From a virus: a stretch of 36,690 nt of DNA. Made by a program: the position numbers and the translations under genes. Positions 4,488 through 16,753 of this stretch are shown here, one piece after another. Where the stretch lies: IMG/VR virus record IMGVR_UViG_3300045988_098479. One strand, written 5' to 3'. Every line of letters starts with the position of its first letter. Within the stretch, counting starts at the first letter, position 1. The notes under the pieces were generated by a model. That model was not told the origin of the DNA and made no database searches. It saw only the letters and a list, made by a program, of their open reading frames with translations.

Positions 4488-5678
4488 ATGCCCGGGCAAC
4501 CCATAGGAGACATTATGGCACAGTCCGAACGCAAGCGAAGGCGGGCCGGCTCGTACCGCGAGGTCAGGCCGGGCGTCTGGGAGGTGAGGGCGAGCAAGGG
4601 GCGTCGCGCCGACGGCGGGCGCCGCACGGTTTCCCGCACGGTCGAGGGCAGCGAGCTCGACGCCGAGATAGAGGCCGCGCGCCTCGTGGCGGAGCTGGGC
4701 GGCGCGGCGAACCTCGGCGAGTCACTCACGCTCGAGCAGTTCTACTGGGGGATATTCAGGAAGTCGGACAGCAACCGGGGGAAGCCCCGCAGCGCGGCGA
4801 CGCTCAGGCAGTACGACTCCCAGATGGTGCGCAACGTCCTCCCCGCCATCGGGCACATACCGCTGTCCAAGCTCACGCACGGCGACATCAAGGCCGCGGT
4901 GCTGGCGTCGACGGCGCCGGCGCTCACCAAGCGGACGCTGCGCGCAGTGCTGCTGTCGGCATACGACGACGAGCTCATGGACGAGCGGCCGTTCCGGCGG
5001 CGCATAACCACGCCGCAGCGCAGGAAGCCGCAGCGCGCCCCGTGGACGGCGCAGGAGGCGGTAGCGGCGCTCGGGGCCATGAGGGGCCGCCCGCTGGAGG
5101 CGTACCTGATACTCGGCCTGTCGGGACTGCGCATGGAGGAGTCGCTCGGCATCTCCCCCGCCGACATCGTGCCCCAGGCGACCTACGACCTCGTGACCGG
5201 CACGGAGGTCCGCACGCTCACGCTCGTGGTCAGGCGGAAGTACACCGACGCCGACGGCCTGGTGGACGAGGCGAAGAACGAGGCGTCCGTGCGCGAGCGC
5301 CCCGCGATCGTGGCCGGGCGCGACCGGCTGCTCGCCATCGTCGCGGCGACGCGCCCCGACCCGGGCGACCCGACGGCCGTCGACGCCTGGCGCCGCTCGC
5401 GCCTCGTGCCCCTGCGCGGCGACACGCTCTACAAGAGGTGGAAGTCGGAGCTCGCGGCGCTGGGTCTGCGCTTCATCCCGCCGGACATGCTCCGGCACAC
5501 GTCCGAGACGCTGATGCAGGCCGCGGGCCTGCCCGACACGGTCACCTCGCGCTTCCACGGCCACGCGGAGCTCAAGACCGACTACGGCAACTACATGCGC
5601 CCCGGCGCGGCGACCATGGAGGACGCGGCGAGGAAAGTGCATAGACTGCTGTCGGGAGAGGACCCCAGTGGGGCGTAG
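4488..5678 (+). CDS. int: Tyrosine integrase (phage integrase family)
   Basis: Motifs LSGLRMEE (Arg), MLRHTSET (Arg) and FHGHAELKTDYGNY (His, Tyr) are present, together with an N-terminal SAM-like/arm-binding region. The gene is adjacent to attP. ATG 4515 (AGGAGA plus 5 nt) may be the true start. Confidence 0.85.
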   Translation: MPGQPIGDIMAQSERKRRRAGSYREVRPGVWEVRASKGRRADGGRRTVSRTVEGSELDAEIEAARLVAELGGAANLGESLTLEQFYWGIFRKSDSNRGKPRSAATLRQYDSQMVRNVLPAIGHIPLSKLTHGDIKAAVLASTAPALTKRTLRAVLLSAYDDELMDERPFRRRITTPQRRKPQRAPWTAQEAVAALGAMRGRPLEAYLILGLSGLRMEESLGISPADIVPQATYDLVTGTEVRTLTLVVRRKYTDADGLVDEAKNEASVRERPAIVAGRDRLLAIVAATRPDPGDPTAVDAWRRSRLVPLRGDTLYKRWKSELAALGLRFIPPDMLRHTSETLMQAAGLPDTVTSRFHGHAELKTDYGNYMRPGAATMEDAARKVHRLLSGEDPSGA

Positions 5679-6051: not shown

Positions 6052-7236
6052 CTAGCCCCTCTGGGCGTACGCGGCGCCCGATGCGGTGCCGACGGCGATC
6101 CAGCGCGTGTAGCCGGAATAGCTGGTATAGCGTCCCCATACGTAGCCGCCTGATGTCACGAACGTGCCATCGAGGTTGACGGTCTGGCCGCGATGGTAGC
6201 TGGCGACAACGCTGTAGCCGGTGCCCGCGCCGGAGCGAACGTTGAGCGTGTTCACCACGATGCGGTAGCGGCCGGCGGAACGGCCGGTGGATGCGGGGCG
6301 CGCCTGAGACGCGGCGGCGCCAACGCGAACGAGGTAGTCGTTCGGATCGTAGCCGCCGGTGGGCTTGCCGACAGCGACATAGCGGGTATAGCCGGAATAG
6401 CTGGTATATCGTCCCCAAACATAACCGTTCGAGACGCAATACCAATCGTCGAGCGTCACGGTCTGACCGTAGCCGTAGCCAGCCACAACAGCGCCGGACA
6501 TAGACGGCGCGGTACGCACGTTCAGGCGACTTGCGTTGCAGCGGTAGGTGCCGCCGAAGCCGGAGCCGGTCTTTGCAGTGGTGGTGGAAGATGCCACGGT
6601 GCCACCGTTTCCATCAGTCGGCGCGATAGGCGCGACATAGCCGCTGCCGAGGTAAGCTGCCACCGCCTGCTTGAACTCGTACCAAGTCTTGCCATAGGCG
6701 CGGAAATAACCGTTTGGGTCTGTATGGTCGGAACCGCCCCAGCGTTGGGCTGCTTCGTAGTGGCTTAGCAGGCGGGACGTATCCCAGCCATGGGCGCGAA
6801 GCTCATCGCCAGCCCACTTCACAGCTTCATTCCACTGCTTTGCGAAATCGGAAGCATTGGTGGCGTGGGCAAGCTCGATACCGATAGTGGCGTAGTTGCC
6901 ATTGCCAACATGCCAGCACAAGCGATTCTCGGGCACCGTGTTGTACACGGTGGAGCCGTCCAGCTCCATGACGTGATGCACGGCGTAGGTATCGTTGCGC
7001 GACCAAAGCAACGTGTGGTTGTAGGCAGACGCGCCGGGGTTCGCTGTCTCATGGATAACTAGGTAGCTCGCATTGAGATAGCCATGACCGTTGCTCACGT
7101 ACTTGTTCACGCTCTGGTAGGCTTCGGCGCTGAGCGGGGCGGCAAGCGCCGCCACAAGGGCGAGGACAACGGCGAAAACGCTGCGCATCGGCAGCTTGCG
7201 CTTAGCCTCGGCACTAGTCTCCGTCATGGTCGCCAC
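6052..7236 (-). CDS. Endolysin: signal peptide, N-acetylmuramoyl-L-alanine amidase (Amidase_2/PGRP-like), two SH3b-like repeats
   Basis: The N-terminus [23 protein letters not shown] looks like a Sec signal with an AxA site. The amidase block runs [11 protein letters not shown]...[17 protein letters not shown]...HTDP. The C-terminus has two 60-aa repeats. The start could instead be Met4 or Met17. Confidence 0.85.
6088..6546 (-). repeat. Two SH3b-like cell-wall-binding modules (coding tandem repeat)
   Basis: Residues 231-290 and 324-383 of the endolysin share YR...LNVR......G.VVA.Y..GQTV.LD......[15 protein letters not shown](Y/W)(V/I)AVG. Shared DNA stretches lie around 6108-6146 and 6383-6425. 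Confidence 0.85.
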
Positions 7237-7456: not shown

Positions 7457-7795
7457 CTAATCGAGTACGGGCATGTTCATCGCGTCCGTGTACAGGCGCG
7501 TGCCGGTACCGTTGCCGCCCAGCCCGTGATAGGCGGCGTAGACGCTCTCCAGGTGGCGGCGCTCCTCGACGGTCAGGCCGTCCTGTGCCATCGCCCTCTC
7601 ATGGATGCGCTGCAATTCGGCCCACAGCAGCGCGCGCATCCCGGCCTTCATGGCCTCTGACTCAACGCGCTCGCGTTCAGATTTCTCTGATACCTTCCGC
7701 CCCTGGGCCTTGACGGTGGCCACGACCGACGCGACGCACGTCGCCACGACGCACGAGACGATGTCGGTTATGACGATGGCCGCCAGTGATTCCAC
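7457..7795 (-). CDS. N-terminally membrane-anchored lysis-cassette protein (holin/antiholin-like accessory)
   Basis: GTG 7795 has GGAGGG upstream. A transmembrane segment LAAIVITDIVSCVVATCVASVVATV precedes a soluble domain containing YAAYHGLGGNGTGT. It is the first gene of the lysis block. Confidence 0.55.
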   Translation of the reverse strand: MESLAAIVITDIVSCVVATCVASVVATVKAQGRKVSEKSERERVESEAMKAGMRALLWAELQRIHERAMAQDGLTVEERRHLESVYAAYHGLGGNGTGTRLYTDAMNMPVLD

Positions 7796-7875
7796 GCTCG
7801 GCCCTCCTTTCCTCTCGCTTTCCGCGCCATCCTGCGGGCGGCGTGAGATTGAGCCTCGCCGCCGCTACACGCAAT

Positions 7876-7924
7876 AAATCCCAGACGTAACGCAGCGGGC
7901 TACCATGCGAAGCGTCTGGGATTT
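7876..7924. promoter_or_regulatory. 12-bp perfect inverted repeat AAATCCCAGACG / CGTCTGGGATTT bracketing the first ATG of the recombinase ORF
   Basis: Arms are at 7876-7887 and 7913-7924 with a 25-nt loop that contains ATG 7905. T-runs follow on both strands. Function unknown. Confidence 0.5.
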
Positions 7925-8813
7925 TCGAGAGATTGGACTGTTCAAAATGCTGTTTTCCGATGCCATCACCGAGTACATGGCCGACAAGGGCAAGCGTCTC
8001 CGCGCCACCACGCTGGAGGGCTACCGCAGCGCCATCCGCTGCCACCTGATGCCGCAGTGGGGTAAGCGCGAGATTGAGACGATCAGCTTTGAGGAGGTAC
8101 AAGATTGGGTCGATTCGTTCGCCCTACCAGGTGCCGCCGAGAAGGCGTACAAGACCTTCCGACAGATTTACCGCTGGGTGCTTCGCCGACATCAGCTGCG
8201 AATCTGGGACGTGACGCAAGGTGTGGAGCTGCCCCAAAAGCCGACCGCGCGCCGACCGACGCTCACTGCCGAGCAGGAGCGCGTGACGCTCAAGGCCATC
8301 GTCGGCCAGCCCTTCGAGGCCGCAGTCCTGCTCGGTGCCGCGCTGGGCCTGCGCCGCTGCGAGGCCTGCGCGGTGAGAATCGAGGATGTGGATTGGCGTA
8401 GCGGCTGGGTACATGTGCAGCGCGGCCTGCACGTGGTGGGCGGCGAGGTCATCGAGACCGGATGCAAGACCAAGCTGTCAGACCGCAAGCTGAAACTGCC
8501 GCGATTCGCGCTTGAGCGCTTGCGTGCCATCCGTGGGACGCGCAGGTCTGGTCGTCTGTGCCTGCTTGACCCAAACGCCGTCGCCCGCAAGTTCCGCGCG
8601 TTCTGCAAGCGGCTCGACCTGCCGCATGTGCCGATGACGTGCCTTCGCCACAGCTGGGCGACGATCTCGCTGGAGCACGGTGCAGCTATCGAGGACATAG
8701 CCGTGGCGCTCGGGCATTCGACCGTCAACACGGCGATGGCGCACTACCTGCAATCATTCCGCACGGTCGTGGCCAGGGCGAGCGATTCATACACGGCGGC
8801 GATGGAGATGTAG
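7905..8813 (+). CDS. Tyrosine recombinase (XerC/D- or Rci-like), candidate shufflon invertase
   Basis: An N-terminal SAM-like domain (ITEYMADKGKRLRATTLEGYRSAIRCHL) is present. Catalytic-type motifs are LGLRRCE (Arg), LRHSWAT (Arg), LGHS (His) and AMAHY (Tyr). The TAG stop 8811-8813 is part of repeat site 1. The alternative start ATG 7947 lies downstream of the inverted repeat. Confidence 0.85.
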   Translation: MRSVWDFREIGLFKMLFSDAITEYMADKGKRLRATTLEGYRSAIRCHLMPQWGKREIETISFEEVQDWVDSFALPGAAEKAYKTFRQIYRWVLRRHQLRIWDVTQGVELPQKPTARRPTLTAEQERVTLKAIVGQPFEAAVLLGAALGLRRCEACAVRIEDVDWRSGWVHVQRGLHVVGGEVIETGCKTKLSDRKLKLPRFALERLRAIRGTRRSGRLCLLDPNAVARKFRAFCKRLDLPHVPMTCLRHSWATISLEHGAAIEDIAVALGHSTVNTAMAHYLQSFRTVVARASDSYTAAMEM

Positions 8814-8828
8814 GGCATTCCGTATCAC
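8811..8828 (+). repeat. Shufflon site 1 (variant): TAGGGCATTCCGTATCAC
   Basis: The first 10 bp of the core, ATTCCGTATC, are conserved (8817-8826) and the last 2 bp are AC instead of CC. The TAG is the recombinase stop codon. Confidence 0.8.
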
Positions 8829-9118
8829 ACGCCTCGGGCAAGGTAGGGTCAGTATCCTATTTCAAAACAGCCGGCATTGTTATCGTGAGCTGCCTTTTCG
8901 TAAGGGTTACGATTAGTTCGTCGTGGGGAAGCGCGACAATCGGGAGGCTTCCGGAGGGGTTTCGGCCAGCCATCAGGGTCATAGCGCCAATCGCGAGCGA
9001 CTGGGCGAGCGGAAACATGTCCATCGACGCGAACGGAACGGTCACCATTAACGCCAATAACGACACGATCTCCACCGCCTCGTCCATCTCTTCCATCGCT
9101 GTATTTCCGGCGGCGTAG
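8819..9118 (+). CDS. Silent tail-fibre C-terminal cassette 1 (99 codons, no own start at the site)
   Basis: The frame TCC GTA TCA opens at the core of site 1 and runs to the TAG of site 2. The product begins SVSHASGKVGSVSYFKTAG... and ends ...SSIAVFPAA. Confidence 0.7.
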   Translation, partial: SVSHASGKVGSVSYFKTAGIVIVSCLFVRVTISSSWGSATIGRLPEGFRPAIRVIAPIASDWASGNMSIDANGTVTINANNDTISTASSISSIAVFPAA

Positions 9119-9131
9119 CATTCCGTATCCC
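9116..9131 (+). repeat. Shufflon site 2: TAGCATTCCGTATCCC
   Basis: Exact 16-mer. The TAG is the stop of cassette 1. Confidence 0.9.
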
Positions 9132-9400
9132 GTGCGCCGAGAGTTTTTGTCGGTAACAAGATCGTGAACTTTAACGATGCGAATTACACGATGCTTTGGG
9201 ACAAGGTGGGCTTTGAGCGGGAGTTCGGGCGAGGCTTCGACAATTCCCGCGATTCCGTGTACGCGATGAACGGTGATGCGAGCTACGACTTCATGGTTTC
9301 CGGCGTGAATTTCTACCCACGCGACGGGAACCTCGTCGTCGCAATCAGCGGCGCACACACTGGTCCATTCCGAGTGAATTACATCGTTGTGCTTGGCTAG
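9122..9400 (+). CDS. Silent tail-fibre C-terminal cassette 2 (92 codons)
   Basis: The frame opens at TCC GTA TCC of site 2 and ends at the TAG of site 3. The product begins SVSRAPRVFVGNKIVNFNDANYTMLW... The ORF-track GTG 9164 is internal. Confidence 0.75.
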   Translation, partial: SVSRAPRVFVGNKIVNFNDANYTMLWDKVGFEREFGRGFDNSRDSVYAMNGDASYDFMVSGVNFYPRDGNLVVAISGAHTGPFRVNYIVVLG

Positions 9401-9413
9401 CATTCCGTATCCC
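9398..9413 (+). repeat. Shufflon site 3: TAGCATTCCGTATCCC
   Basis: Exact 16-mer. The TAG is the stop of cassette 2. Confidence 0.9.
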
Positions 9414-9643
9414 ATCTCACCCATATCGAGGTCGTGTCAGGCCAAAGCGACGGCACCGTGACCGCGCCGACGGTCGCGGGCTACCGCTTCTTGTGCTGGG
9501 TGGCATGCGTGTCCGTCGGCTGGGTCGGTATCTGCTACATCGAGCATCCAACGAACACGACATCGAAAATCTGGTACGTCACGCAGCTGCAGAATAGCGG
9601 CGGCGGCAGGGTGGATTGCTTCGCGCTTTACGTGCATCAGTAG
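9404..9643 (+). CDS. Silent tail-fibre C-terminal cassette 3 (79 codons)
   Basis: The frame opens at site 3. The product begins SVSHLTHIEVVSGQSDGTVTAP... and ends ...CFALYVHQ with TAG 9641-9643. It converges on, and overlaps by 7 nt, the end of cassette 4. Confidence 0.75.
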   Translation, partial: SVSHLTHIEVVSGQSDGTVTAPTVAGYRFLCWVACVSVGWVGICYIEHPTNTTSKIWYVTQLQNSGGGRVDCFALYVHQ

Positions 9644-9981
9644 GGGCGCACTTCGAGCAGCCATGAGAATGGCGTGCTCTTGGCCCACCCAGCGTTCGGC
9701 TTGTTTTCCGTCTTGAAGTAGTACGTCTTACCAGCTTCCACGCCCGCGAATACGGCCTTGGCCGTAACCATGCGCTGGACGCCGTCGCTGCCGTTGAGGC
9801 CAGTCGATACCTCCGCCACGCTTTGCAGCCCGCTCGGTGTCACCACATGGAGGCCGATCTCGCCGCCCCATGCGCCGTACGTCTCATACGCCCACACCTG
9901 TGCGACGATTACGCCGCTCACCTTGGGAGTGAATGAGAATTCGGCGCTTGAAGATGCGAAATACTCGGTCTGGGATACGGA
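9637..9981 (-). CDS. Silent tail-fibre C-terminal cassette 4 (114 codons)
   Basis: The frame opens at site 4. The product begins SVSQTEYFASSSAEFSFTPKVSGVIVAQVW... and ends ...SWLLEVRPY with TGA 9637-9639. Confidence 0.75.
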   Translation of the reverse strand, partial: SVSQTEYFASSSAEFSFTPKVSGVIVAQVWAYETYGAWGGEIGLHVVTPSGLQSVAEVSTGLNGSDGVQRMVTAKAVFAGVEAGKTYYFKTENKPNAGWAKSTPFSWLLEVRPY

Positions 9982-9987
9982 ATGCTA
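9972..9987 (-). repeat. Shufflon site 4: TAGCATTCCGTATCCC (minus orientation)
   Basis: The plus strand reads GGGATACGGAATGCTA. The TAG is the stop of cassette 5. Confidence 0.9.
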
Positions 9988-10314
9988 GCCGATAGCCCAC
10001 GAGCAGGCGCCCCTGTTTAAGGCTCCGGGCGTCGCGTTGGCGACCTTGAAGCCGACCGTGCCGTCATTGCCGACAAAGCAATATGCGCAGACATTGAGAA
10101 CGTAGCCGTCGTTGTTCGTCGCGCACCCCGGTGTGTAGATGTTGCCAGCGGGCCGCAGCTCTTCAGGGATGCGTTTGTCCACCTGCCAATATTCAGCAGT
10201 CGGCTGGATGACGCTCCAACTGAGCATACAGATGCGCCCGATGCGCCGCACGTAGATGTAAGACGGCTTGTCCGGTCCTCCGTATAGCACAATCGGGTCG
10301 CCGTGGGATACGGA
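9985..10314 (-). CDS. Silent tail-fibre C-terminal cassette 5 (109 codons)
   Basis: The frame opens at site 5. The product begins SVSHGDPIVLYGGPDKPSYIYVRR, contains KRIPEELRPAGNIY and ends CSWAIG. The stop is the TAG of site 4. Confidence 0.75.
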   Translation of the reverse strand, partial: SVSHGDPIVLYGGPDKPSYIYVRRIGRICMLSWSVIQPTAEYWQVDKRIPEELRPAGNIYTPGCATNNDGYVLNVCAYCFVGNDGTVGFKVANATPGALNRGACSWAIG

Positions 10315-10318
10315 ATCA
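10305..10318 (-). repeat. Shufflon site 5 (variant): TGATTCCGTATCCC (minus orientation)
   Basis: The 12-bp core is exact. The 5-prime flank is TGA (stop of cassette 6) instead of TAGC. Confidence 0.85.
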
Positions 10319-10615
10319 CATGCCGATGGGGTAGCTCAGCGAGGCGAAGTGGTTCCGATGGTCCGTCTTGCCGCCCATGCTATGCACTATGATGGTGCCG
10401 TCTGACATGACGAGCAGGCGGTACGAGTTGTCCACGCCTCCGTACTCGGTGACCATCGCCGCAGACCAGGCATGGGAGGGCCGCAGCTCCTCGGGAATGA
10501 CGTACGGACACTTGATGCCCTCAGCAGGATCAGCGATGATCTGCGTGGCGCGGACGTAGACCGTCATGCCCACGCGCACGACGCTCCAGTTTTTCGCCTC
10601 GTACAGGGATACGGA
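10316..10615 (-). CDS. Silent tail-fibre C-terminal cassette 6 (99 codons)
   Basis: The frame opens at site 6. The product begins SVSLYEAKNWSVVRVGMTVYV, contains YVIPEELRPSHAW and ends LSYPIGM. The stop is the TGA in site 5. It shares the IPEELRP motif with cassette 5. Confidence 0.75.
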   Translation of the reverse strand, partial: SVSLYEAKNWSVVRVGMTVYVRATQIIADPAEGIKCPYVIPEELRPSHAWSAAMVTEYGGVDNSYRLLVMSDGTIIVHSMGGKTDHRNHFASLSYPIGM

Positions 10616-10621
10616 ATGCTA
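10606..10621 (-). repeat. Shufflon site 6: TAGCATTCCGTATCCC (minus orientation)
   Basis: Exact 16-mer. The TAG is the stop of cassette 7. Confidence 0.9.
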
Positions 10622-10921
10622 CTCGAAATCGATAGCGACGATTTGAATGTTGACTCGTGCATAAATTCCCCTCGTGCCGCCCTCGATGTCCACCCAGAAG
10701 TTCCCTGAACTCCAATAAGCAAGATTGATTACATCGAACGCATTAGCAGTAATATCACCGTTAAACACTTGGACGATGTCGAAGCCGTTGAAGTCGCGGC
10801 CCACCAGATTCTTGTACTCGTCTTTGGTGATCGCGAGAAGCCTTCCGGAGGCATCCCATTGTGTGCCGGGGCGGACGATGGACGTGAAGAACTGACGTAT
10901 GCGCGGCGCCCGGGATACGGA
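10619..10921 (-). CDS. Silent tail-fibre C-terminal cassette 7 (100 codons)
   Basis: The frame opens at site 7. The product begins SVSRAPRIRQFFTSIVRPGTQWD... and ends ...NIQIVAIDFE. The stop is the TAG of site 6. It shares the SVSRAPR start with cassette 2 and is visibly AT-richer. Confidence 0.75.
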   Translation of the reverse strand, partial: SVSRAPRIRQFFTSIVRPGTQWDASGRLLAITKDEYKNLVGRDFNGFDIVQVFNGDITANAFDVINLAYWSSGNFWVDIEGGTRGIYARVNIQIVAIDFE

Positions 10922-10927
10922 ATGCTA
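10912..10927 (-). repeat. Shufflon site 7: TAGCATTCCGTATCCC (minus orientation)
   Basis: Exact 16-mer. The TAG is the stop of cassette 8. Confidence 0.9.
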
Positions 10928-11179
10928 GAGCTGGAAGGCAAACCAGACAATGTCAGTCGTTACCGCCTTCTTTGGTTCAGTCTCGTTGTAAACCCGAATC
11001 TTAAAGCCTGTCGGCGTGAGGCTGTGCGAGCTTAGCGACACTTGCGTCCAATACATCGGGATTCCGCCTCTTGACAGCATAACGGCGTAGTCGCCAGCAT
11101 ACGGCTTGTCGAAAGTGACATCTTTATCGATGTATTCGGTGGCGATCGTCGCGGTCAGCTTGCCCCGTCGGGATACGGA
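10925..11179 (-). CDS. Silent tail-fibre C-terminal cassette 8 (84 codons)
   Basis: Translated codon by codon: it begins SVSRRGKLTATIATEYIDKDVTFDKPYAGDYAVML... and ends ...TTDIVWFAFQL. The stop is the TAG of site 7. It is absent from the ORF track because it has no start codon. Confidence 0.75.
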   Translation of the reverse strand, partial: SVSRRGKLTATIATEYIDKDVTFDKPYAGDYAVMLSRGGIPMYWTQVSLSSHSLTPTGFKIRVYNETEPKKAVTTDIVWFAFQL

Positions 11180-11185
11180 ATGCTA
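11170..11185 (-). repeat. Shufflon site 8: TAGCATTCCGTATCCC (minus orientation)
   Basis: Exact 16-mer. The TAG is the stop of the currently expressed tail-fibre gene. Confidence 0.9.
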
Positions 11186-11998
11186 CAGGGGAATAAAGCC
11201 CATGGCCGAGGGCCATCCGAAACCGCGCATCGGCTCTGAAGAGGACACATCGAACATCGCGTCACCGTTGGTCTGAACCCTTAGCGCCACCCCAAATTTG
11301 AGCTGCATGTTTGCGCAGATGCACACGATCCGCTCATTGGTAGGCAGATAATTTGAAGGCAGCGTGAGCACCTTGGCCGAATAGCCGGTCTGAGTCCCGG
11401 TGGTCATGTAGCCGCTGCCTTTCGTCTCAAAAACAAGTGAGTGTATGGCGGGAATGTAGGAGACATCCAGAGTTGCGTCGCAGCCGTAGATATTCGCTCT
11501 GCCGCTGGCGATCTTCATTCGGGATACGGAATCCCCGAGGGTCGCGAGCGAGGCCACGGGGTCGAAGAGCCTCACGGGCGTGCCGGCGTTGATTCCATTC
11601 AGCGGCACGCGCCACAGCTTCAAGTCGTTCGCCGTCACCTTTGGGTCTGCGGCGGTACCCGTTGTGGGCGTGCCTTTGATTACGACGGGCGTGATGGATT
11701 CGATGCCCGCACTCGTCTTTGCGTAGCGCGCGACCACCAGGTCGTTGCGCTTCTGGCCTTGCGTACCAGATTGGATGGTCAAGCCAGTAGCCGCCTGGTT
11801 CCAGAAGCGCTTGCCGCCGACCATGCCCACGCCGGTGCCGAGCGTCGCTGAGTTCGCGCTCTGCATCGTCAGCTCGAAGTCGTCGCCGTACTCCAGCACG
11901 CAGTCGGCCCTGCCGACCGTCGCGGTGTTGAGCGCGGCCAGGTCGTCCGAGCTGATGTGCTTCGTGCCGGTCATTCCGTCCACTATCTCGAATGCCAT
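11183..11998 (-). CDS. Tail fibre / receptor-binding protein (constant N-terminal 156 aa plus currently expressed cassette 9)
   Basis: ATG 11998 has AAGGAG upstream. It is the last structural gene after the Dit/Tal/Zn-ribbon genes. The shufflon core lies at codons 157-160 and the stop is the TAG of site 8. Confidence 0.8.
   Translation of the reverse strand: MAFEIVDGMTGTKHISSDDLAALNTATVGRADCVLEYGDDFELTMQSANSATLGTGVGMVGGKRFWNQAATGLTIQSGTQGQKRNDLVVARYAKTSAGIESITPVVIKGTPTTGTAADPKVTANDLKLWRVPLNGINAGTPVRLFDPVASLATLGDSVSRMKIASGRANIYGCDATLDVSYIPAIHSLVFETKGSGYMTTGTQTGYSAKVLTLPSNYLPTNERIVCICANMQLKFGVALRVQTNGDAMFDVSSSEPMRGFGWPSAMGFIPL
11521..11532 (-). repeat. Shufflon site 9 (expression site) inside the tail-fibre gene: ATTCCGTATCCC
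   Basis: Exact 12-bp core, encoding (D)SVS(R) at codons 156-160 of the fibre. Its 5-prime flank is the constant region rather than TAGC. Confidence 0.9.
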
Positions 11999-11999
11999 G

Positions 12000-12233
12000 C
12001 TACTGCTCCTTCGCGTTGCTCATGAACTGTTGGAACTCGCCGTCGTGCTTGGCGGCGAGCTTCTTGTACTCGTCCGTGCACCCCTTGCACAGCAGGCGGG
12101 TCGCCCTGCTGCCGTACTGATCGAAGCGCTCGACCTCGCGCCAGTCCCCCGCCGCCGCAGCGCCTTGCTGCAGGTACGCGCTCTCGCCGCAGCGGTCGCA
12201 TGTGTACTTCGTGATGTTGTCTGTCTTGGACAT
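12000..12233 (-). CDS. Small CxxC...CxxC zinc-ribbon-like protein (77 aa)
   Basis: ATG 12233 has GAGGAGA upstream. The product contains YTCDRCGESAY...LLCKGCTDEY. It lies between Tal and the fibre. The remainder of ORF 12000..12572 is overprinted on Tal and is rejected. Confidence 0.6.
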   Translation of the reverse strand: MSKTDNITKYTCDRCGESAYLQQGAAAAGDWREVERFDQYGSRATRLLCKGCTDEYKKLAAKHDGEFQQFMSNAKEQ

Positions 12234-12244
12234 GCCTGTCTCCT

Positions 12245-13723
12245 CTACTTCGTCCTGAGCCACGTGTACGGGCCGATGCTCGGCACCATCCGCCATTCGC
12301 CGCCGTAGTCGGACGGGTCGTAGCCCTTCGTCTCGATGTAGGTGCCGACCGGGTGAGACGCCTCGAACATCTCCCTGACGGTCACCGCCGACGCGGTGCC
12401 GGGCGGCCCTTGCTCGCCGCGCTCGCCCTTCTCGCCGCGCTCGCCCTTCTCGCCGCGCGGGATGCCGAGCGAGAGCGTCTTGATCAGGCTCTCGCCCGCG
12501 AGAGCCGCCGTGGCGTTCGCGCCCGGCGGCAGCGTCTGGACCGCGCCGATCTCCAACGAGGCGCCTGCCCACGTCTGCACGGCTTTGGTCGCGTCCCTGC
12601 GGGCGGCCTCGGCGGTGCCGCGCACCTCAGTGAGCGCATCTGCGTCAACCTCCGCGCTGAATGTGTAGTTGCTCAGCGTCAGGCCTTTGCCGGCCAGGTA
12701 CGCGTGCCCGCCGCCTCCGCTGCCGCTGCCGCTGCTCTCGGCGACTCCGCTGCTGCTCATCTTGGTCGTGGTCTCGCCGCCGACCTCGTATGAGTACACG
12801 GCAACGCCGCGCGAGACCTTCACGATCTTCTTCGCTACCGTCGCGTTCACGGTGCGCCCGTGCGCGTTGTCGCGCGCCGAGATCATGTCTCCCACGTCCA
12901 CGTCGATATCGTCGTGGGTCGCAACCTCGACGCTGCCTTGGGTCTGATACTCTTGCAGCTTCTTGCGGCCCTCCTCCTCCAGCTTCGCCTCATCGGCGTT
13001 GCTGTAGTCGTAGAGCGCGCATATCTCGTCGACGCCGAAGAGGCTCTGGACGTGGCTGACGTTGCCCGCCGCGTCGGCGTAGAAGTGGACTACCGCGCGG
13101 TTCTCCAATTCGCCAGTTCCCGCGCAAACCAAATGGTTCACGCAGCGGTAGACAGACGTGAGCGTGAAATCCATAAGGTCGGAATCGACCTTATTCGCGT
13201 AGTCCACTATCGGCGGCAGCGACAGCTCGACCTTGCCGCCGAGGCGGCGCATCGAGACCTTTCGCCCGTTCGCCTTCGCCAGGGCCTTCAGGCCGCCGTA
13301 CCCGTCCGCGAAGCGGTCGATGGTGTAGCTGACCGCCGTATCGTCTACGGCGGCTGAAAACAGCCCGGACAGCCCCATGCGGGATATGAGGGACGCGACC
13401 ACCTCGCCCGCCTTGCCGCTCACTGCGAGGTAGCCGCTGCCCGAATCGGGCAGGAGGCGCTTGCCGGCCAGGATGCCGTGCCACGTGCGGCCCTTGCACA
13501 GGACGGTGCCGGAGGCGTCCCTGCCCGTATCGTAGGTGACCTCGTCGACGACGCCGCCGTACTCGGTCCCGTCGATGAATACGAATTGCCCCTCGGCGGG
13601 GGCCTCGCCGGCGCGCGCCTCGAGCTTCAGGGCGTTCTCGTCGCTGCCGAACGCGAGGTCGAGCTCGAATTCCTCGATCTCGCGGACGTCCCCGGCCGCC
13701 GGGTCGCTCACCACTAGGACCAT
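12245..13723 (-). CDS. Tail-associated (Tal / siphovirus Gp37-like) baseplate protein with a collagen-like Gly-X-Y stretch
   Basis: ATG 13723 overlaps the Dit stop. The gene is immediately after Dit. The product is 492 aa, with RGEKGERGEKGERGEQGPPG near the C-terminus. Confidence 0.7.
   Translation of the reverse strand: MVLVVSDPAAGDVREIEEFELDLAFGSDENALKLEARAGEAPAEGQFVFIDGTEYGGVVDEVTYDTGRDASGTVLCKGRTWHGILAGKRLLPDSGSGYLAVSGKAGEVVASLISRMGLSGLFSAAVDDTAVSYTIDRFADGYGGLKALAKANGRKVSMRRLGGKVELSLPPIVDYANKVDSDLMDFTLTSVYRCVNHLVCAGTGELENRAVVHFYADAAGNVSHVQSLFGVDEICALYDYSNADEAKLEEEGRKKLQEYQTQGSVEVATHDDIDVDVGDMISARDNAHGRTVNATVAKKIVKVSRGVAVYSYEVGGETTTKMSSSGVAESSGSGSGGGGHAYLAGKGLTLSNYTFSAEVDADALTEVRGTAEAARRDATKAVQTWAGASLEIGAVQTLPPGANATAALAGESLIKTLSLGIPRGEKGERGEKGERGEQGPPGTASAVTVREMFEASHPVGTYIETKGYDPSDYGGEWRMVPSIGPYTWLRTK
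12398..12463 (-). repeat. Collagen-like Gly-X-Y coding repeat (tandem 18-bp units)
   Basis: GEKGER is duplicated at the DNA level (cgccgcgctcgcccttct occurs twice on the plus strand). Confidence 0.8.
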
Positions 13724-14529
13724 GCCGGCTCCCCCTCCTCCTCGTAGAGCGTCAGGTCGAACCCGAAGCTGTTGTCCCACGAGACCTCGCAGGTGCCGGC
13801 CGGCACGCGCTCGAAGATGTACTCGCCCGAGCCGGCGCCGCTGCCTCGGTGCGCCTTGCCGAAGGCGTCGCGGACGTCGCCGTCTGCGGAGACCACGGAG
13901 ACGGTGCGCCGCAGCGGGTCGACCTCCATGTAGCCGCCGTCCGGCACCGATACGTCGACCTGGTACAGGTTCTCGCCGAGCCGGACCGCGGGATTGACCG
14001 CCGGCCCGTAGACGATGAACCGGGCGGGGCTGCCGGAATGCCCCGGGTTGCGCGCGTACCGCTTCGGCGGGGTCGCCCCGAGGTCATACGGGAGGTCATG
14101 CGGTAGGTCGAGGAACTCGTACCCGGACGAGCCCATGACGGGCGTGAACTCCGTCGTGACGCCCCTGCGCCACAGGCCGTCGAGCAGCACGACGGTGATC
14201 TTCGCGGTGAAGAGCCCGTCCCGCACCCCGTCGACCTTCGACGCGAGGACGAAGCAGCGCTGGAACCACAACCCGACCCTCAGCGTCCCGGGCGTGTTGC
14301 CCGAGACGTCGAGGTCCGCGCAGCGGCGGAACTCGTCGGCCAGCGCCATGTCGGCGAAGACCGCCCTGAACGAGGCCTTGCGGGCGCCGCGCGAGACGGT
14401 CGACAGCGCACGGTACCCGATCTTGTAGTCCCATTCGCGGCTGAAGAGGTCGTTCGGCGTGCCGACGTAGATGCCGGAATTGAGCGGGATGACCGCCCCC
14501 GCGCCCGATTCATATTCGATATCAGGCAT
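13714..14529 (-). CDS. Distal tail protein (Dit)
   Basis: ATG 14529 overlaps the TMP stop by 8 nt. The product is 271 aa and the gene sits in the canonical position directly after the tape measure gene. Confidence 0.7.
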   Translation of the reverse strand: MPDIEYESGAGAVIPLNSGIYVGTPNDLFSREWDYKIGYRALSTVSRGARKASFRAVFADMALADEFRRCADLDVSGNTPGTLRVGLWFQRCFVLASKVDGVRDGLFTAKITVVLLDGLWRRGVTTEFTPVMGSSGYEFLDLPHDLPYDLGATPPKRYARNPGHSGSPARFIVYGPAVNPAVRLGENLYQVDVSVPDGGYMEVDPLRRTVSVVSADGDVRDAFGKAHRGSGAGSGEYIFERVPAGTCEVSWDNSFGFDLTLYEEEGEPAWS

Positions 14530-16753
14530 ACGCGACCGCCTTCCTCGCCCTGCGCCCGAACTCCGACTCGCCCATGACGGGCGTGAACTCCGCGATGATG
14601 GAGGGCAGGTTCTCGGCCAGCCAGCCGATAACGGCCGACGCGCCGCCGTCCGCGACAACGCCCTCCCCGGTGCCGGAAATGGTCCGGTCGCCGTAACGCG
14701 GGCCGTCGGCCCTGACCGTCGCATCGAACGCCGCGGCGCGCTCGACCTTCCCGACGGCGGACTCCATTGACTTCACGGGCTCGTCCGCCGTGTCGTCGAT
14801 GCCGAGGGCCGCGCCCTGCATCACGTAGCCGAATATCTTGCGGAACACGCGCGAGGGCGAGTGGATGCCGAGCAGGTTCTTGGCTGCGTCGATGGCGCCG
14901 CCGACCACGCCGGTTATCTTGTTGACGACCACGCCGGCCGCGCCGCTGATTCCGTTTGCGATGCCCTGCACGATATTGCGGCCGATCGACACCACGCGGC
15001 CCGGCAAGCTAAGGAAGGCGGACTCGATGTTCGACGCGATGCGTAGCGCCGCGCCCTTCACTGCACCGACTGCGCCCGAGATGGCGCCCTGCAGGTTGTA
15101 CATGGCAACCTTGCCGAGGTTCGACAGCGTCGACGGCAGGTTCTGGATGGCGTCGCGGATGGCGGACACGATGTTGGTGCCGCACGTGCTGACGAAGCCG
15201 GCCATGCCGGCGATGCCGTTGCCCAGGAGCGTGATGGCGTTGCGGCCGAGGCTTATCCAGTCGAGAGCTGACCATGCCGCGAGTATTGCCGAGAAGATGG
15301 CCGGGATGTTCGCGATGAGCGTCGGTATCGCCTGCACGATGCCGAGCGCCAGCGTCACGATTGCCTGGATGCCGGCGCCCAGCAGCGTCGGCGCGTTGTC
15401 GTTGATCGCGTCGGCGAGGTTCTGCACGATGACCGGGGCCTGCTCGATGATGGTCGGCAGGCTGTCGGCGATACCCTGCGCCAGGCCGACTATGAGGTTC
15501 GCCGCGCCCTCGGCAAGAACGCCCGCGTTCTCGGCTATGGACTCTGAGAGGCCGGTGAGAATCTGCAGGCCGCTCTCCATGATGGAGGGAAGGTTCTCGG
15601 ACAGGTAGCCGCCGAGTTGGCTCATGATGTCGGCCGCCGCGCCGGAGAGGAACGACAGGCCGTTCACGATACCGTCGTAGAGCACCGGTCCGACCTGCGC
15701 GCCTATCTCGTCCAACCCGCCGAAGGCGCCCGAGAGCGCCGACATGGCGCTGTCGGCGATGGACATGAAGGCCTCGCCGGCGACCGGCGCCAGCGTCGCT
15801 ATGACCCCGGGGAGCTGCTCGACGGCCGTGGACACGATGGTCGCCACGCGCGGCACGATGTTGGAGGCCGCCGTCTCGACCGACTCGACCAGCTCGGTCG
15901 TGAGCTTGCCCATGTCGGCGTCGTCCTTGCCGAGCTCCGTCACCCAGTTCTCCCACGCGGCCTTGGCCATGTTGCAGGAGCCCTCGATGGTCGTCGCGGC
16001 CTCACGCGAGGTCGTGCCGGCGATCTGCATCTGCTCCTGCATCGTATGGATGGCGAGCACGATGTTGTCGAAGGACAGGCTCGACTCGTCCACGGCGGAG
16101 TTGACCGCGTGCGCGTCCGAGATGAGGCGCTGCATCTCCTCCTTGGTGCCGCCGTATCCCAGCTTCAAGTTGTCGAGCATGGTGTAGTTCTGTTTCGCAA
16201 ATCCCTGGTACGCGTTCTGGAGGTCCTCCATCGCCGTGCCGAAGGTGTTCGCGTTGTCGCTCATGTCGACCATTGCCGTGTCGGCGTACTCGGCGGCCTT
16301 GACCGTGTCGCCGCCGAGCGATTTGACGAGCGAGGCGGAGAAGCCCGTCACCTGCTCCATGTACCGGTTGGCGCTCAGGCCGGCCGTTATGTAGGCGCGG
16401 TCGGCATTTGCCAGCACCGTCGTCTGTGCCTGCTCGAGCTGCTGCCACTTGCCGGAGCACTGCTCGACGGTCTGGCCGGTCATGGCGGCGTAGTCCTCTA
16501 GGGACTTGCCCATGTTGCCGAAAATCTTCTGGATGCCGCCGACGTTCTGCTCGTACGCGGCGTAGGCGTTCATGCTCATGCCGGTCACCGCCGCGACGCC
16601 GGCAGCCACCGCCGTTACTCCGGCCGCGACAAGCGATGCGGCCGCGGCCGCCGCCTTGCCGAGCTTTCCCTCGATGCCGCCGGCGATGCCGTCGACCTTG
16701 CCGGATGCCTGGTCGTCGACGCCGATCTTGACCAAGAGATCGAGAAGGTCCAT
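14522..16753 (-). CDS. Tape measure protein
   Basis: The product is 743 aa, Ala/Gly/Ile-rich with repetitive helical and hydrophobic segments. Its ATG lies directly after the stop of the GT chaperone extension. Confidence 0.9.
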   Translation of the reverse strand: MDLLDLLVKIGVDDQASGKVDGIAGGIEGKLGKAAAAAASLVAAGVTAVAAGVAAVTGMSMNAYAAYEQNVGGIQKIFGNMGKSLEDYAAMTGQTVEQCSGKWQQLEQAQTTVLANADRAYITAGLSANRYMEQVTGFSASLVKSLGGDTVKAAEYADTAMVDMSDNANTFGTAMEDLQNAYQGFAKQNYTMLDNLKLGYGGTKEEMQRLISDAHAVNSAVDESSLSFDNIVLAIHTMQEQMQIAGTTSREAATTIEGSCNMAKAAWENWVTELGKDDADMGKLTTELVESVETAASNIVPRVATIVSTAVEQLPGVIATLAPVAGEAFMSIADSAMSALSGAFGGLDEIGAQVGPVLYDGIVNGLSFLSGAAADIMSQLGGYLSENLPSIMESGLQILTGLSESIAENAGVLAEGAANLIVGLAQGIADSLPTIIEQAPVIVQNLADAINDNAPTLLGAGIQAIVTLALGIVQAIPTLIANIPAIFSAILAAWSALDWISLGRNAITLLGNGIAGMAGFVSTCGTNIVSAIRDAIQNLPSTLSNLGKVAMYNLQGAISGAVGAVKGAALRIASNIESAFLSLPGRVVSIGRNIVQGIANGISGAAGVVVNKITGVVGGAIDAAKNLLGIHSPSRVFRKIFGYVMQGAALGIDDTADEPVKSMESAVGKVERAAAFDATVRADGPRYGDRTISGTGEGVVADGGASAVIGWLAENLPSIIAEFTPVMGESEFGRRARKAVAYA

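Follow-up and report, generated by a model that had tools for sequence, protein, structure and literature searches.

The 36,690-nucleotide (nt) stretch of viral DNA analysed here, referred to below as the window (IMG/VR virus record IMGVR_UViG_3300045988_098479), appears from its sequence to be a temperate siphovirus-like Collinsella prophage in which nine short sites separate alternative head domains of a receptor-binding tail protein. The array of head cassettes lies between rin, a gene for a Xer-like tyrosine recombinase, and Rc, the constant N-terminal part of the receptor-binding protein. We read this arrangement as a Rin-type multiple-inversion switch of the receptor-binding tail protein with nine alternative heads, and put the probability of this reading at about 0.9. 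The locus is a Rin-type shufflon, a kind of system already published together with its asymmetric repeat, the position of the repeat behind a stop codon and the puzzle of how deletion is avoided. Our additions are its occurrence and abundance in Collinsella hosts, a site definition of 16 base pairs (bp), a stop codon shared across genera, the mapping of the crossover to 8 bp and a dyad at the expression site. The features are listed in window coordinates, with lengths in amino acids (aa); related loci carry L numbers and related proteins P numbers.

7905..8813, + strand: rin, Xer-like tyrosine recombinase, 302 aa; its stop TAG (8811-8813) abuts site 1
8817..8828, + strand: site 1, rin-proximal, ATTCCGTATCAC; A at position 11, elsewhere an invariant C
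8819..9118, + strand: cassette 1, silent, 99 aa, open frame from Ser-Val-Ser to TAG
9116..9131, + strand: site 2, TAGC followed by ATTCCGTATCCC
9122..9400, + strand: cassette 2, silent, 92 aa
9398..9413, + strand: site 3, TAGC followed by the same 12-mer
9404..9643, + strand: cassette 3, 79 aa, left half of the central convergent segment (9414-9971)
9637..9981, - strand: cassette 4, 114 aa, right half of the central convergent segment
9972..9987, - strand: site 4, TAGC followed by the 12-mer
9985..10314, - strand: cassette 5, silent, 109 aa; an 88% homologue is fused to the constant part in L071
10305..10318, - strand: site 5, 12-mer overlapped by the cassette 6 stop TGA (TGATTCC...); phase differs
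10316..10615, - strand: cassette 6, silent, 99 aa
10606..10621, - strand: site 6, TAGC followed by the 12-mer
10619..10921, - strand: cassette 7, silent, 100 aa; a 77% homologue adjoins the expression site in L020 and L065
10912..10927, - strand: site 7, TAGC followed by the 12-mer
10925..11179, - strand: cassette 8, silent, 84 aa; weak H-type lectin match (4e-3, below cut-off)
11170..11185, - strand: site 8, TAGC followed by the 12-mer; its TAG terminates the expressed gene
11183..11530, - strand: cassette 9, 115 aa, currently expressed head domain; C-terminal beta domain in the AlphaFold2 model (residues 160-270)
11521..11535, - strand: site 9, the expression site, GGG followed by ATTCCGTATCCC, that is GGGA-TTCCGTA-TCCC; encodes Gly-Asp-Ser-Val-Ser in the interdomain linker
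11533..11998, - strand: Rc, constant N-terminal part of the receptor-binding protein, 155 aa plus Asp156

Receptor-binding protein, head cassettes and recombinase

AlphaFold2 modelled the product of the expressed gene (11998-11183, 271 aa) as two beta domains with a linker, residues 149-156, of low predicted local distance difference test (pLDDT) score, and this low-confidence linker immediately precedes Ser-Val-Ser. The top Foldseek match of the receptor-binding protein was that of lactococcal phage p2 (2bsd, E value 7.8e-5). We found 2,085 Rc homologues; in 87 of the top 120, residues 155-159 read G[DN]SVS, after which the C-terminal parts begin in at least 51 different ways. A constant N-terminal part is thus fused to dissimilar C-terminal cassettes. 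The nine cassettes of the window share no nucleotide similarity, and their amino-acid identity beyond Ser-Val-Ser is 11-28%. A Pfam search of all nine recognized an MSP1_barrel jelly-roll in cassette 4 (7.4e-7, above cut-off) and nothing else besides the sub-threshold H_lectin match of cassette 8. Arrays in related loci hold 3 to 17 cassettes.

Rin consists of a SAM-like and a catalytic domain only (Pfam Phage_int_SAM_3, 1.5e-9; Phage_integrase, 5.5e-11) and ends about 20 residues past the catalytic Tyr, without an extra C-terminal domain. Its best PDB match was the XerC-like 4a8e (3.9e-8), and matches to the NCBIfam XerA, XerC, XerD and integron-integrase models were weak and far below cut-off. 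The motifs GLRRCE, KT, LRH, LGHS and HY are conserved as far as Bifidobacterium phage PMBT6. Most rin homologues start at the equivalent of Met15 (7947), which would give a protein of 288 aa. Rin is 83-98% identical to its counterparts in related genome loci, almost all of them from Collinsella, and 80% identical to that of one Eggerthella locus (L024). It is an armless tyrosine recombinase encoded at one end of the array, separately from a 396-aa prophage integrase (4488-5678).

Site anatomy, crossover mapping and the embedded stop codon

A search of the window with ATTCCGTATCCC, allowing up to two mismatches, returned 9 matches where 1.6 were expected, a number reached in 0 of 100 shuffles. 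All lie within 8817-11532 and none elsewhere in the window; eight are exact, and the exception is site 1. The nine sites of the original prediction were therefore recovered, and the flanks quoted for them, read in the cassette direction, were reproduced exactly. Their orientations, which had merely been implied, are the following: sites 1-3 lie on the + strand (8817, 9120, 9402) and sites 4-9 on the - strand (9972, 10305, 10606, 10912, 11170, 11521). There is no site between cassettes 3 and 4, whose ends overlap. TAGC stands directly 5' of the 12-mer at sites 2, 3, 4, 6, 7 and 8. At site 5 the TGA overlaps the 12-mer, and cassette 6 keeps the same ggcatgTGATTCC end in L050, L051, L053 and L055; at site 9, GGGG precedes the 12-mer; and at site 1 the TAG that ends rin is 3 nt further upstream.

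The silent sites of related loci conform to the logo (A/G)TAG(C/T)(A/T)-TTCCGTAT-C/g/t-C-C, with weak preferences alone 3' of it (+1 purine, +2 G, +4 T). The picture is one of an 8-bp invariant core with 3-5 conserved bases on either side, rather than the one-sided conservation first proposed. Silent sites have two short half-sites, left (A/G)TAG(C/T)(A/T) and right CCC, and are asymmetric. The description of the block as not palindromic holds for these silent sites; it fails for the expression site, whose GGGA-TTCCGTA-TCCC is a 4+4 dyad. Taken together, the aligned sites suggest the definition [GGG or TAG(C/T)]-N-TTCCGTAT-CCC, with strand exchange probably inside the 8-bp core.

GGG occupies positions -3 to -1 in all 18 expression sites scanned, nearly all of which read cTCGGGG-ATTCCGTATCCC, and the same positions at silent sites hold AGC or AGT. 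GGG is also kept in PMBT6/ctl617 and L027 despite different encoded residues (Leu-Gly-Asp, Leu-Trp-Asp, Arg-Gly); because it persists while the residues change, it points to a constraint at the DNA level. The expression site, which would take part in all productive reactions, can be described as a near-dyad, GGG-N9-CCC.

Natural variants allowed us to map the crossover. Positions -1 (C/T) and 1 (A/T) follow the upstream flank, as in tgcttagtTTTCC, which is found with five different cassettes, while positions 10 and 12 follow the downstream cassette (...GCCagctcgac, ...TTCCagacttcc, ...CCTcgatggtc, ...CCAagctatat). Positions 2-9 were polymorphic within a locus in 0 of 23 loci, a count limited by the site-finding pattern, which fixed positions 2-4 and 7-9; a looser scan gave two core-mismatch matches inside arrays, both in L006 and both taken as chance. 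In other loci these positions are replaced locus-wide, namely in L016 (T at position 5), L027 (C at position 6) and the Bifidobacterium-type L048/49 (A at position 9). Such concerted change would be expected of an overlap region that needs a match between partner sites. Because flanking variants segregate by side and the core changes locus-wide, strand exchange is placed within TTCCGTAT, and hence inside the 12-mer, where the original prediction expected it; the exact cleavage positions are presumably in this interval. The two classes of left half-site, GGG and AGC/AGT, never mix, since the crossover lies to their right.

The original prediction further held that the sites carry a built-in stop codon and preserve the reading phase. 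Within the window, the TAG at sites 2, 3, 4, 6, 7 and 8 is indeed the in-frame stop of the preceding cassette, and the constant part with cassettes 9, 8, 7 and 6 forms a single frame of 1,683 nt (11998 to 10316) with stops at codons 272, 358, 460 and 561. We extended the analysis to 108 silent, non-central cassettes from 27 loci. All 108 are open from the Ser codon to a point no more than 46 nt short of the next site. In 88 of them a TAG at positions -4 to -2 of that site is the first stop in frame, and in 97 the inter-site distance is a multiple of 3, so that both features extend well beyond the window. The fixed TAG is a property of the site and not of codon usage, because TAG ends only about half of the other predicted window genes (14 of 29, rin included). 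TAG(C/T) also persists at silent sites where the recombinase is just 36-38% identical, in Bifidobacterium-type systems: TAGC-N-TTCC occurs at 10 of the 11 sites of PMBT6 and ctl617, described as every site besides two expression sites. Since exchange takes place 3' of the TAG, a cassette keeps its own stop when it moves. The embedded stop is thus dispensable for terminating whichever cassette arrives, as each brings its own, and the long frame is an automatic by-product of fixed stop position and phase.

Two departures from the usual site were seen. In L050, the cassette-end TAGs at 7689-7700 and 7992-8003 are replaced by CAG and TGG (ggcgCAGCATTCC, tggcTGGCATTCC), and the homologues of cassettes 2, 1 and 4 would form one in-frame multi-head open reading frame if moved to the expression site. 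The degenerate site is the rin-proximal one both in the window, where 8817-8828 has CAC for CCC, and in PMBT6 (L048 4213-4230, TTCCGTAATCA). Homologues of cassette 1 in L050 and L051 carry CCC, unlike site 1 of the window, and cassette 1 may be locked out of expression here by its variant site.

Reassortment between loci and the proposed switch

Related contigs hold the same cassettes reordered with all breakpoints at sites, in agreement with the site-specific recombination originally proposed. Across 27 loci, the 8-mers flanking the sites reassort, with 23 of 77 upstream families having at least two downstream partners. One case is provided by L053, L051 and L055, whose rin genes are 99.6% identical mutually and 97% identical to that of the window. 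All three hold homologues of window cassettes 1, 2, 6 and 9; they differ from one another by permutation and inversion of blocks, which overlap by 12-16 nt, a stretch that corresponds to the site. L001 (Rin 97% identical) has window cassette 4, at 98% identity, attached to its rin-proximal site, and in L050 cassette 6 takes the expressed place with cassette 9 behind it. The 558-nt central segment (cassettes 3 and 4) is intact in L050, 94.6% identical and flipped relative to the constant part. Inversions with breakpoints at the sites were thus observed by comparison between contigs, not within one sample.

Cassettes that are silent in the window appear to be expressed elsewhere, as other contigs and database proteins have homologues of cassettes 1, 2, 5, 6 and 7 joined to Rc at residue 157. 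Cassette 1 is 98% identical to the C-terminus (residues 157-255) of the full-length protein P0172, and its homologue is fused to the constant part in L051, L055, L056 and L062. Homologues of cassette 2 (87-91%) form the C-termini of P0155, P0160 and P0178 and follow the constant part in L040, L053 and L054. For cassette 6, the homologue is joined to the constant part at the 12-mer in L038, L042, L046, L047 and L050 (92-97% at nucleotide level), with protein homologues P0216 (97%) and P0191 (93%). No expressed homologue of cassette 8 was found among the related contigs and proteins. Conversely, homologues of the expressed cassette 9 lie silent behind ends of the TAG type, tgacTAGC in L040 and ggcatgTGATTCC in L050.

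The assemblies themselves may bear traces of rearrangement. Eleven of 30 genome contigs end inside the array (L001, L002, L003, L005, L009, L010, L012, L014, L018, L021 and L022), four on the last base of a 12-mer or no more than 1 nt away from it and the rest 41-115 nt beyond one; two, L001 and L021, are isolate (pure-culture) assemblies. Such ends are expected when an assembler meets a mixed isomer population. In all GTDB loci that have sites on both strands, the + sites come first and the - sites follow, around one convergent segment. Since arrays with up to 16 directly repeated sites exist (L006), deletion is evidently rare.

Based on these findings, we propose the following model. In the product of the gene 11998-11183, a linker connects a constant 'shoulder' domain to the head domain, and the linker codons for Asp-Ser-Val-Ser contain the expression site. 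Downstream follow eight further, promoterless head cassettes, each preceded by the 12-mer, with rin at the far end. The two cassette stacks point to one convergent central segment, with sites 1-3 inverted relative to sites 4-9. Rin, the presumed catalyst, would bring a + strand site together with the expression site or another - strand site and exchange strands inside TTCCGTAT; the intervening DNA would be inverted and the inner 'tails' of the two stacks swapped, with the topology preserved. Every fusion would be in frame because the crossover falls within the codons TCC GTA T, and the stop of each cassette, usually a TAG in the left half-site of the next site, would travel with it. From the present state, cassettes 1-3 would be one inversion from expression, cassette 1 only if the variant site 1 recombines, and cassettes 4-8 two.

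Several points weigh against this model. No inversion was seen within a single sample of the window phage, the evidence coming from contigs and not from reads, and the three contigs with identical Rin (L031-L033) show the arrangement of the window itself, so that no isomer of this exact phage was present among them. Most of the comparison loci are metagenome assemblies, in which paths through a mixed array can be chimeric. Site 1 is altered at an otherwise invariant position and may be inactive. Finally, the HxxR motif usual at the active site has no first His in Rin (residues ~245-250; MTCLRH, PRNLRH), a loss shared by its homologues in Bifidobacterium phages, although Arg, Lys, Arg, His and Tyr are retained.

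Some loci show structures of other kinds. Sites placed back to back and facing outward occur in L051 (7607-7667), L053 (2725-2785) and L067 (1937-1970); they give two convergent sub-arrays, a topology unreachable by inversion alone from the usual layout, and the 62-nt two-site block is 100% identical in L051 and L053 with different cassettes attached. At the extreme contig end of L069 (1-160), a cassette 9 homologue is followed by 84 nt of cassette 4 that run directly, with no intervening site, into an oppositely oriented internal piece of cassette 8; this is either an illegitimate junction or an assembly artefact. In L036 (920-2841; IMG/VR UViG_3300015187_000060), two different Rc-type genes, each with a ctcggggATTCCGTATCCC site, face each other with one further site between them, and rin is absent from the surrounding 14 kb. 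This points either to a swap of heads between two receptor-binding proteins or to a chimeric assembly. L004 differs from L009, L011 and L012 in the 5' 450 nt of rin (~15% diverged) and in Rc, which is diverged right up to the expression site, whereas the 3' 450 nt of rin and the cassettes are 97-100% identical. The array and half of rin have thus probably moved between phage backbones. We considered this better conservation of cassettes than backbone as a sign of site-specific transfer and rejected it, since the rin-side boundary lies inside rin and points to ordinary homologous mosaicism. L011 holds 5 of the 12 cassettes of L004 at 99-100% identity, a clean subset in a metagenome assembly; the differences in cassette number among L009, L011 and L012, which have identical rin, were set aside as proof of deletion because such assemblies may be chimeric.

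Related systems and alternative explanations

A Rin shufflon was described in Bifidobacterium breve and B. longum prophages by Mavrich et al. 2018 (PMC6109161). It comprises an armless tyrosine invertase gene, rin, together with Rc, tandem Rv cassettes and an asymmetric 11-bp site, rix (TTCCCTAACCC), and inversions at rix were seen in sequencing reads (PMC6109161). Here too, a rix-type site precedes every cassette, one lies within the receptor-binding-protein gene and one directly follows a stop, and the recombinase is likewise armless. The published rix matches TTCCGTATCCC of the window at 9 of 11 positions and differs in the core at positions 6 and 9. Rc of the Bifidobacterium system has ~168 aa and its Rv cassettes 95-100 aa, and arrays hold 3-5 cassettes against nine here and up to 17 in relatives; B. 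breve Bb423phi1 was compared by its published description, not by direct alignment. PMBT6 and Siphoviridae ctl617 have the gene order of the window, sites of the form TAGC-N-TTCCGTAACCC, and Rin and Rc proteins 36-38% (E value 1e-42) and 35-37% (2e-20) identical to those of the window, the values for PMBT6 singly being 38% and 35%.

The same kind of system is present in Eggerthella lenta clade-1 prophages, for which Buttimer et al. 2022 reported an 8-bp repeat, ttccgtat, before each cassette and inside Rc, 'just after a stop codon' (PMC8778435). This repeat equals exactly positions 2-9 of the 12-mer, and the two systems share the host class Coriobacteriia, a tyrosine recombinase beside tandem Rv cassettes and the Rc gene, and H-type lectin cassettes; the Eggerthella locus L024 is 80% (Rin) and 82% (Rc) identical to the window at nucleotide level. 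The window differs in its Collinsella host (Rin 94-98% identical to Collinsella contigs), its nine cassettes and a conserved block of 12-16 bp instead of 8, and the published description does not include crossover mapping, stop-codon and phase analysis or the expression-site dyad. We came across no account of a Collinsella shufflon in the literature searched; in this genus the system is abundant, with Rc homologues numbering about 2,000 and 3-17 cassettes per array. Rin shufflons let prophages of gut Actinobacteria hedge their host range.

The original prediction compared the sites to those of the R64 shufflon, in which one conserved and one non-conserved arm would restrict Rci to inversion. 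With R64/IncI the locus shares a tyrosine recombinase that shuffles alternative C-termini of an adhesin (pilV in R64), asymmetric sites, a recombinase gene at the array end and many sites with little deletion. Rci has an extra C-terminal domain, which the minimal, Xer-like Rin of 302 aa lacks; no similarity between the two was detectable, as judged from a plasmid hit list and not from direct alignment with R64, and a tblastn search of 72,556 plasmids (PLSDB) with Rin gave 84 records that named no typical IncI host genus. The R64 sfx site, with a 7-bp core, a 12-bp conserved right arm and a random left arm, is not matched here either, as the Rin site has an invariant 8-bp core between two short half-sites. 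In R64 each segment is bounded by inverted sites; here there are two direct-repeat stacks, and only the central segment is so bounded. The analogy thus appears weak as homology and functional at most. Phage inversion systems such as Gin (Mu), Cin (P1) and the multi-segment Min (p15B) also alter the C-terminus of a tail fibre and so host range, but they use a serine recombinase with no homology to Rin, a Fis-dependent enhancer and other sites; Rin belongs to the Phage_integrase (tyrosine) family.

How deletion between direct sites is avoided is a question that Mavrich et al. raise for Rin (PMC6109161); a bias toward inversion is presumed here. An R64-like explanation, in which the unequal arms force inversion and prevent deletion between direct repeats, seems to us possible though clearly not the favoured one. 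It accords with the asymmetry of the silent sites, with the persistence of arrays of up to 16 direct sites in L006, which requires deletion to be rare, and with a model on record for R64. That model, however, ascribes the restriction to the 7-bp core and 12-bp arm, the random left arm and cooperative binding by the C-terminal domain of Rci (PMC11852207), a domain absent from Rin. In addition, conservation is found on both sides of the core, the expression site as the most important one is near-symmetric, and cassette numbers of 3-17 with clean junctions, including the L011 subset of L004 (a metagenome assembly), hint at loss and gain. A different source of bias would be the half-sites themselves. 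The pairing of CCC with GGG at the expression site and with AGC at silent sites might steer Rin to expression-site inversions and away from deletion, the bias then arising from this half-site difference rather than from an Rci-like extra domain, and the same sites might let cassettes move as units between backbones; we regard this proposal as rather unlikely. The sharper site definition makes deletion avoidance by an armless, domain-poor tyrosine recombinase simply testable, and a small recombinase limited to inversion would be of use in DNA barcoding.

It is comparably doubtful that Rin behaves in an integron-like manner, also excising cassettes as circles and inserting them at sites of co-resident phages, so that cassettes would be mobile and shared. 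The near-identical cassettes of L004 and L009/L011/L012 beside diverged Rc and rin 5' halves fit this idea, as do the identity of window cassettes to L050, which ranges from 75 to 98% within one array, the variable cassette number and the non-canonical back-to-back sites of L051, L053 and L067. Yet the rin-side identity boundary lies inside rin and not at a site, homologous mosaicism could move whole arrays, metagenome assemblies may skip cassettes, and no excised circle or empty site was observed among the compared loci. Far less probable is that no dedicated recombination takes place, with the 12-mer kept as code for a Ser-Val-Ser linker and homologous recombination or gene conversion rearranging the cassettes. 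The motif does lie in a coding linker and all cassettes are read in one phase. However, TCC GTA TCC does not vary even at its synonymous positions, the rin-proximal site retains the 12-mer although it is untranslated, GGG is kept while the residues vary (LGD, LWD, RG), the cassettes have no DNA similarity to support homologous recombination, and all breakpoints fall within 8 bp; since no silent copy of the expressed cassette exists, the exchange is reciprocal and not copying. This explanation is already contradicted by the data. We likewise give hardly any credence to reading-through or recoding of the in-frame TAGs, which would turn the constant part and cassettes 9-8-7-6 into one 560-residue multi-head protein. 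The single 1,683-nt frame and the two L050 cassette ends with CAG and TGG, which fuse neighbours in frame, would suit it; the window, on the other hand, has no tRNA gene and hence no suppressor, TAG is a normal terminator of its genes, rin included, and the continuity of the frame follows automatically from the fixed stop position and phase. We therefore rejected it and retain the Rin-type inversion switch.

The surroundings of the array are those of a tailed phage. A minor tail gene (12245-13780) and the tape measure gene (14522-16753) lie upstream of the Rc gene, an amidase endolysin gene is present at 6052-7236, and megablast of positions 7800-12100 against GenBank phages gave no match. A gene of ~77 aa directly upstream of Rc (12000-12233 in the window, 2470-2703 in L048) keeps its position and is common to the Collinsella, metagenome and Bifidobacterium-phage loci.

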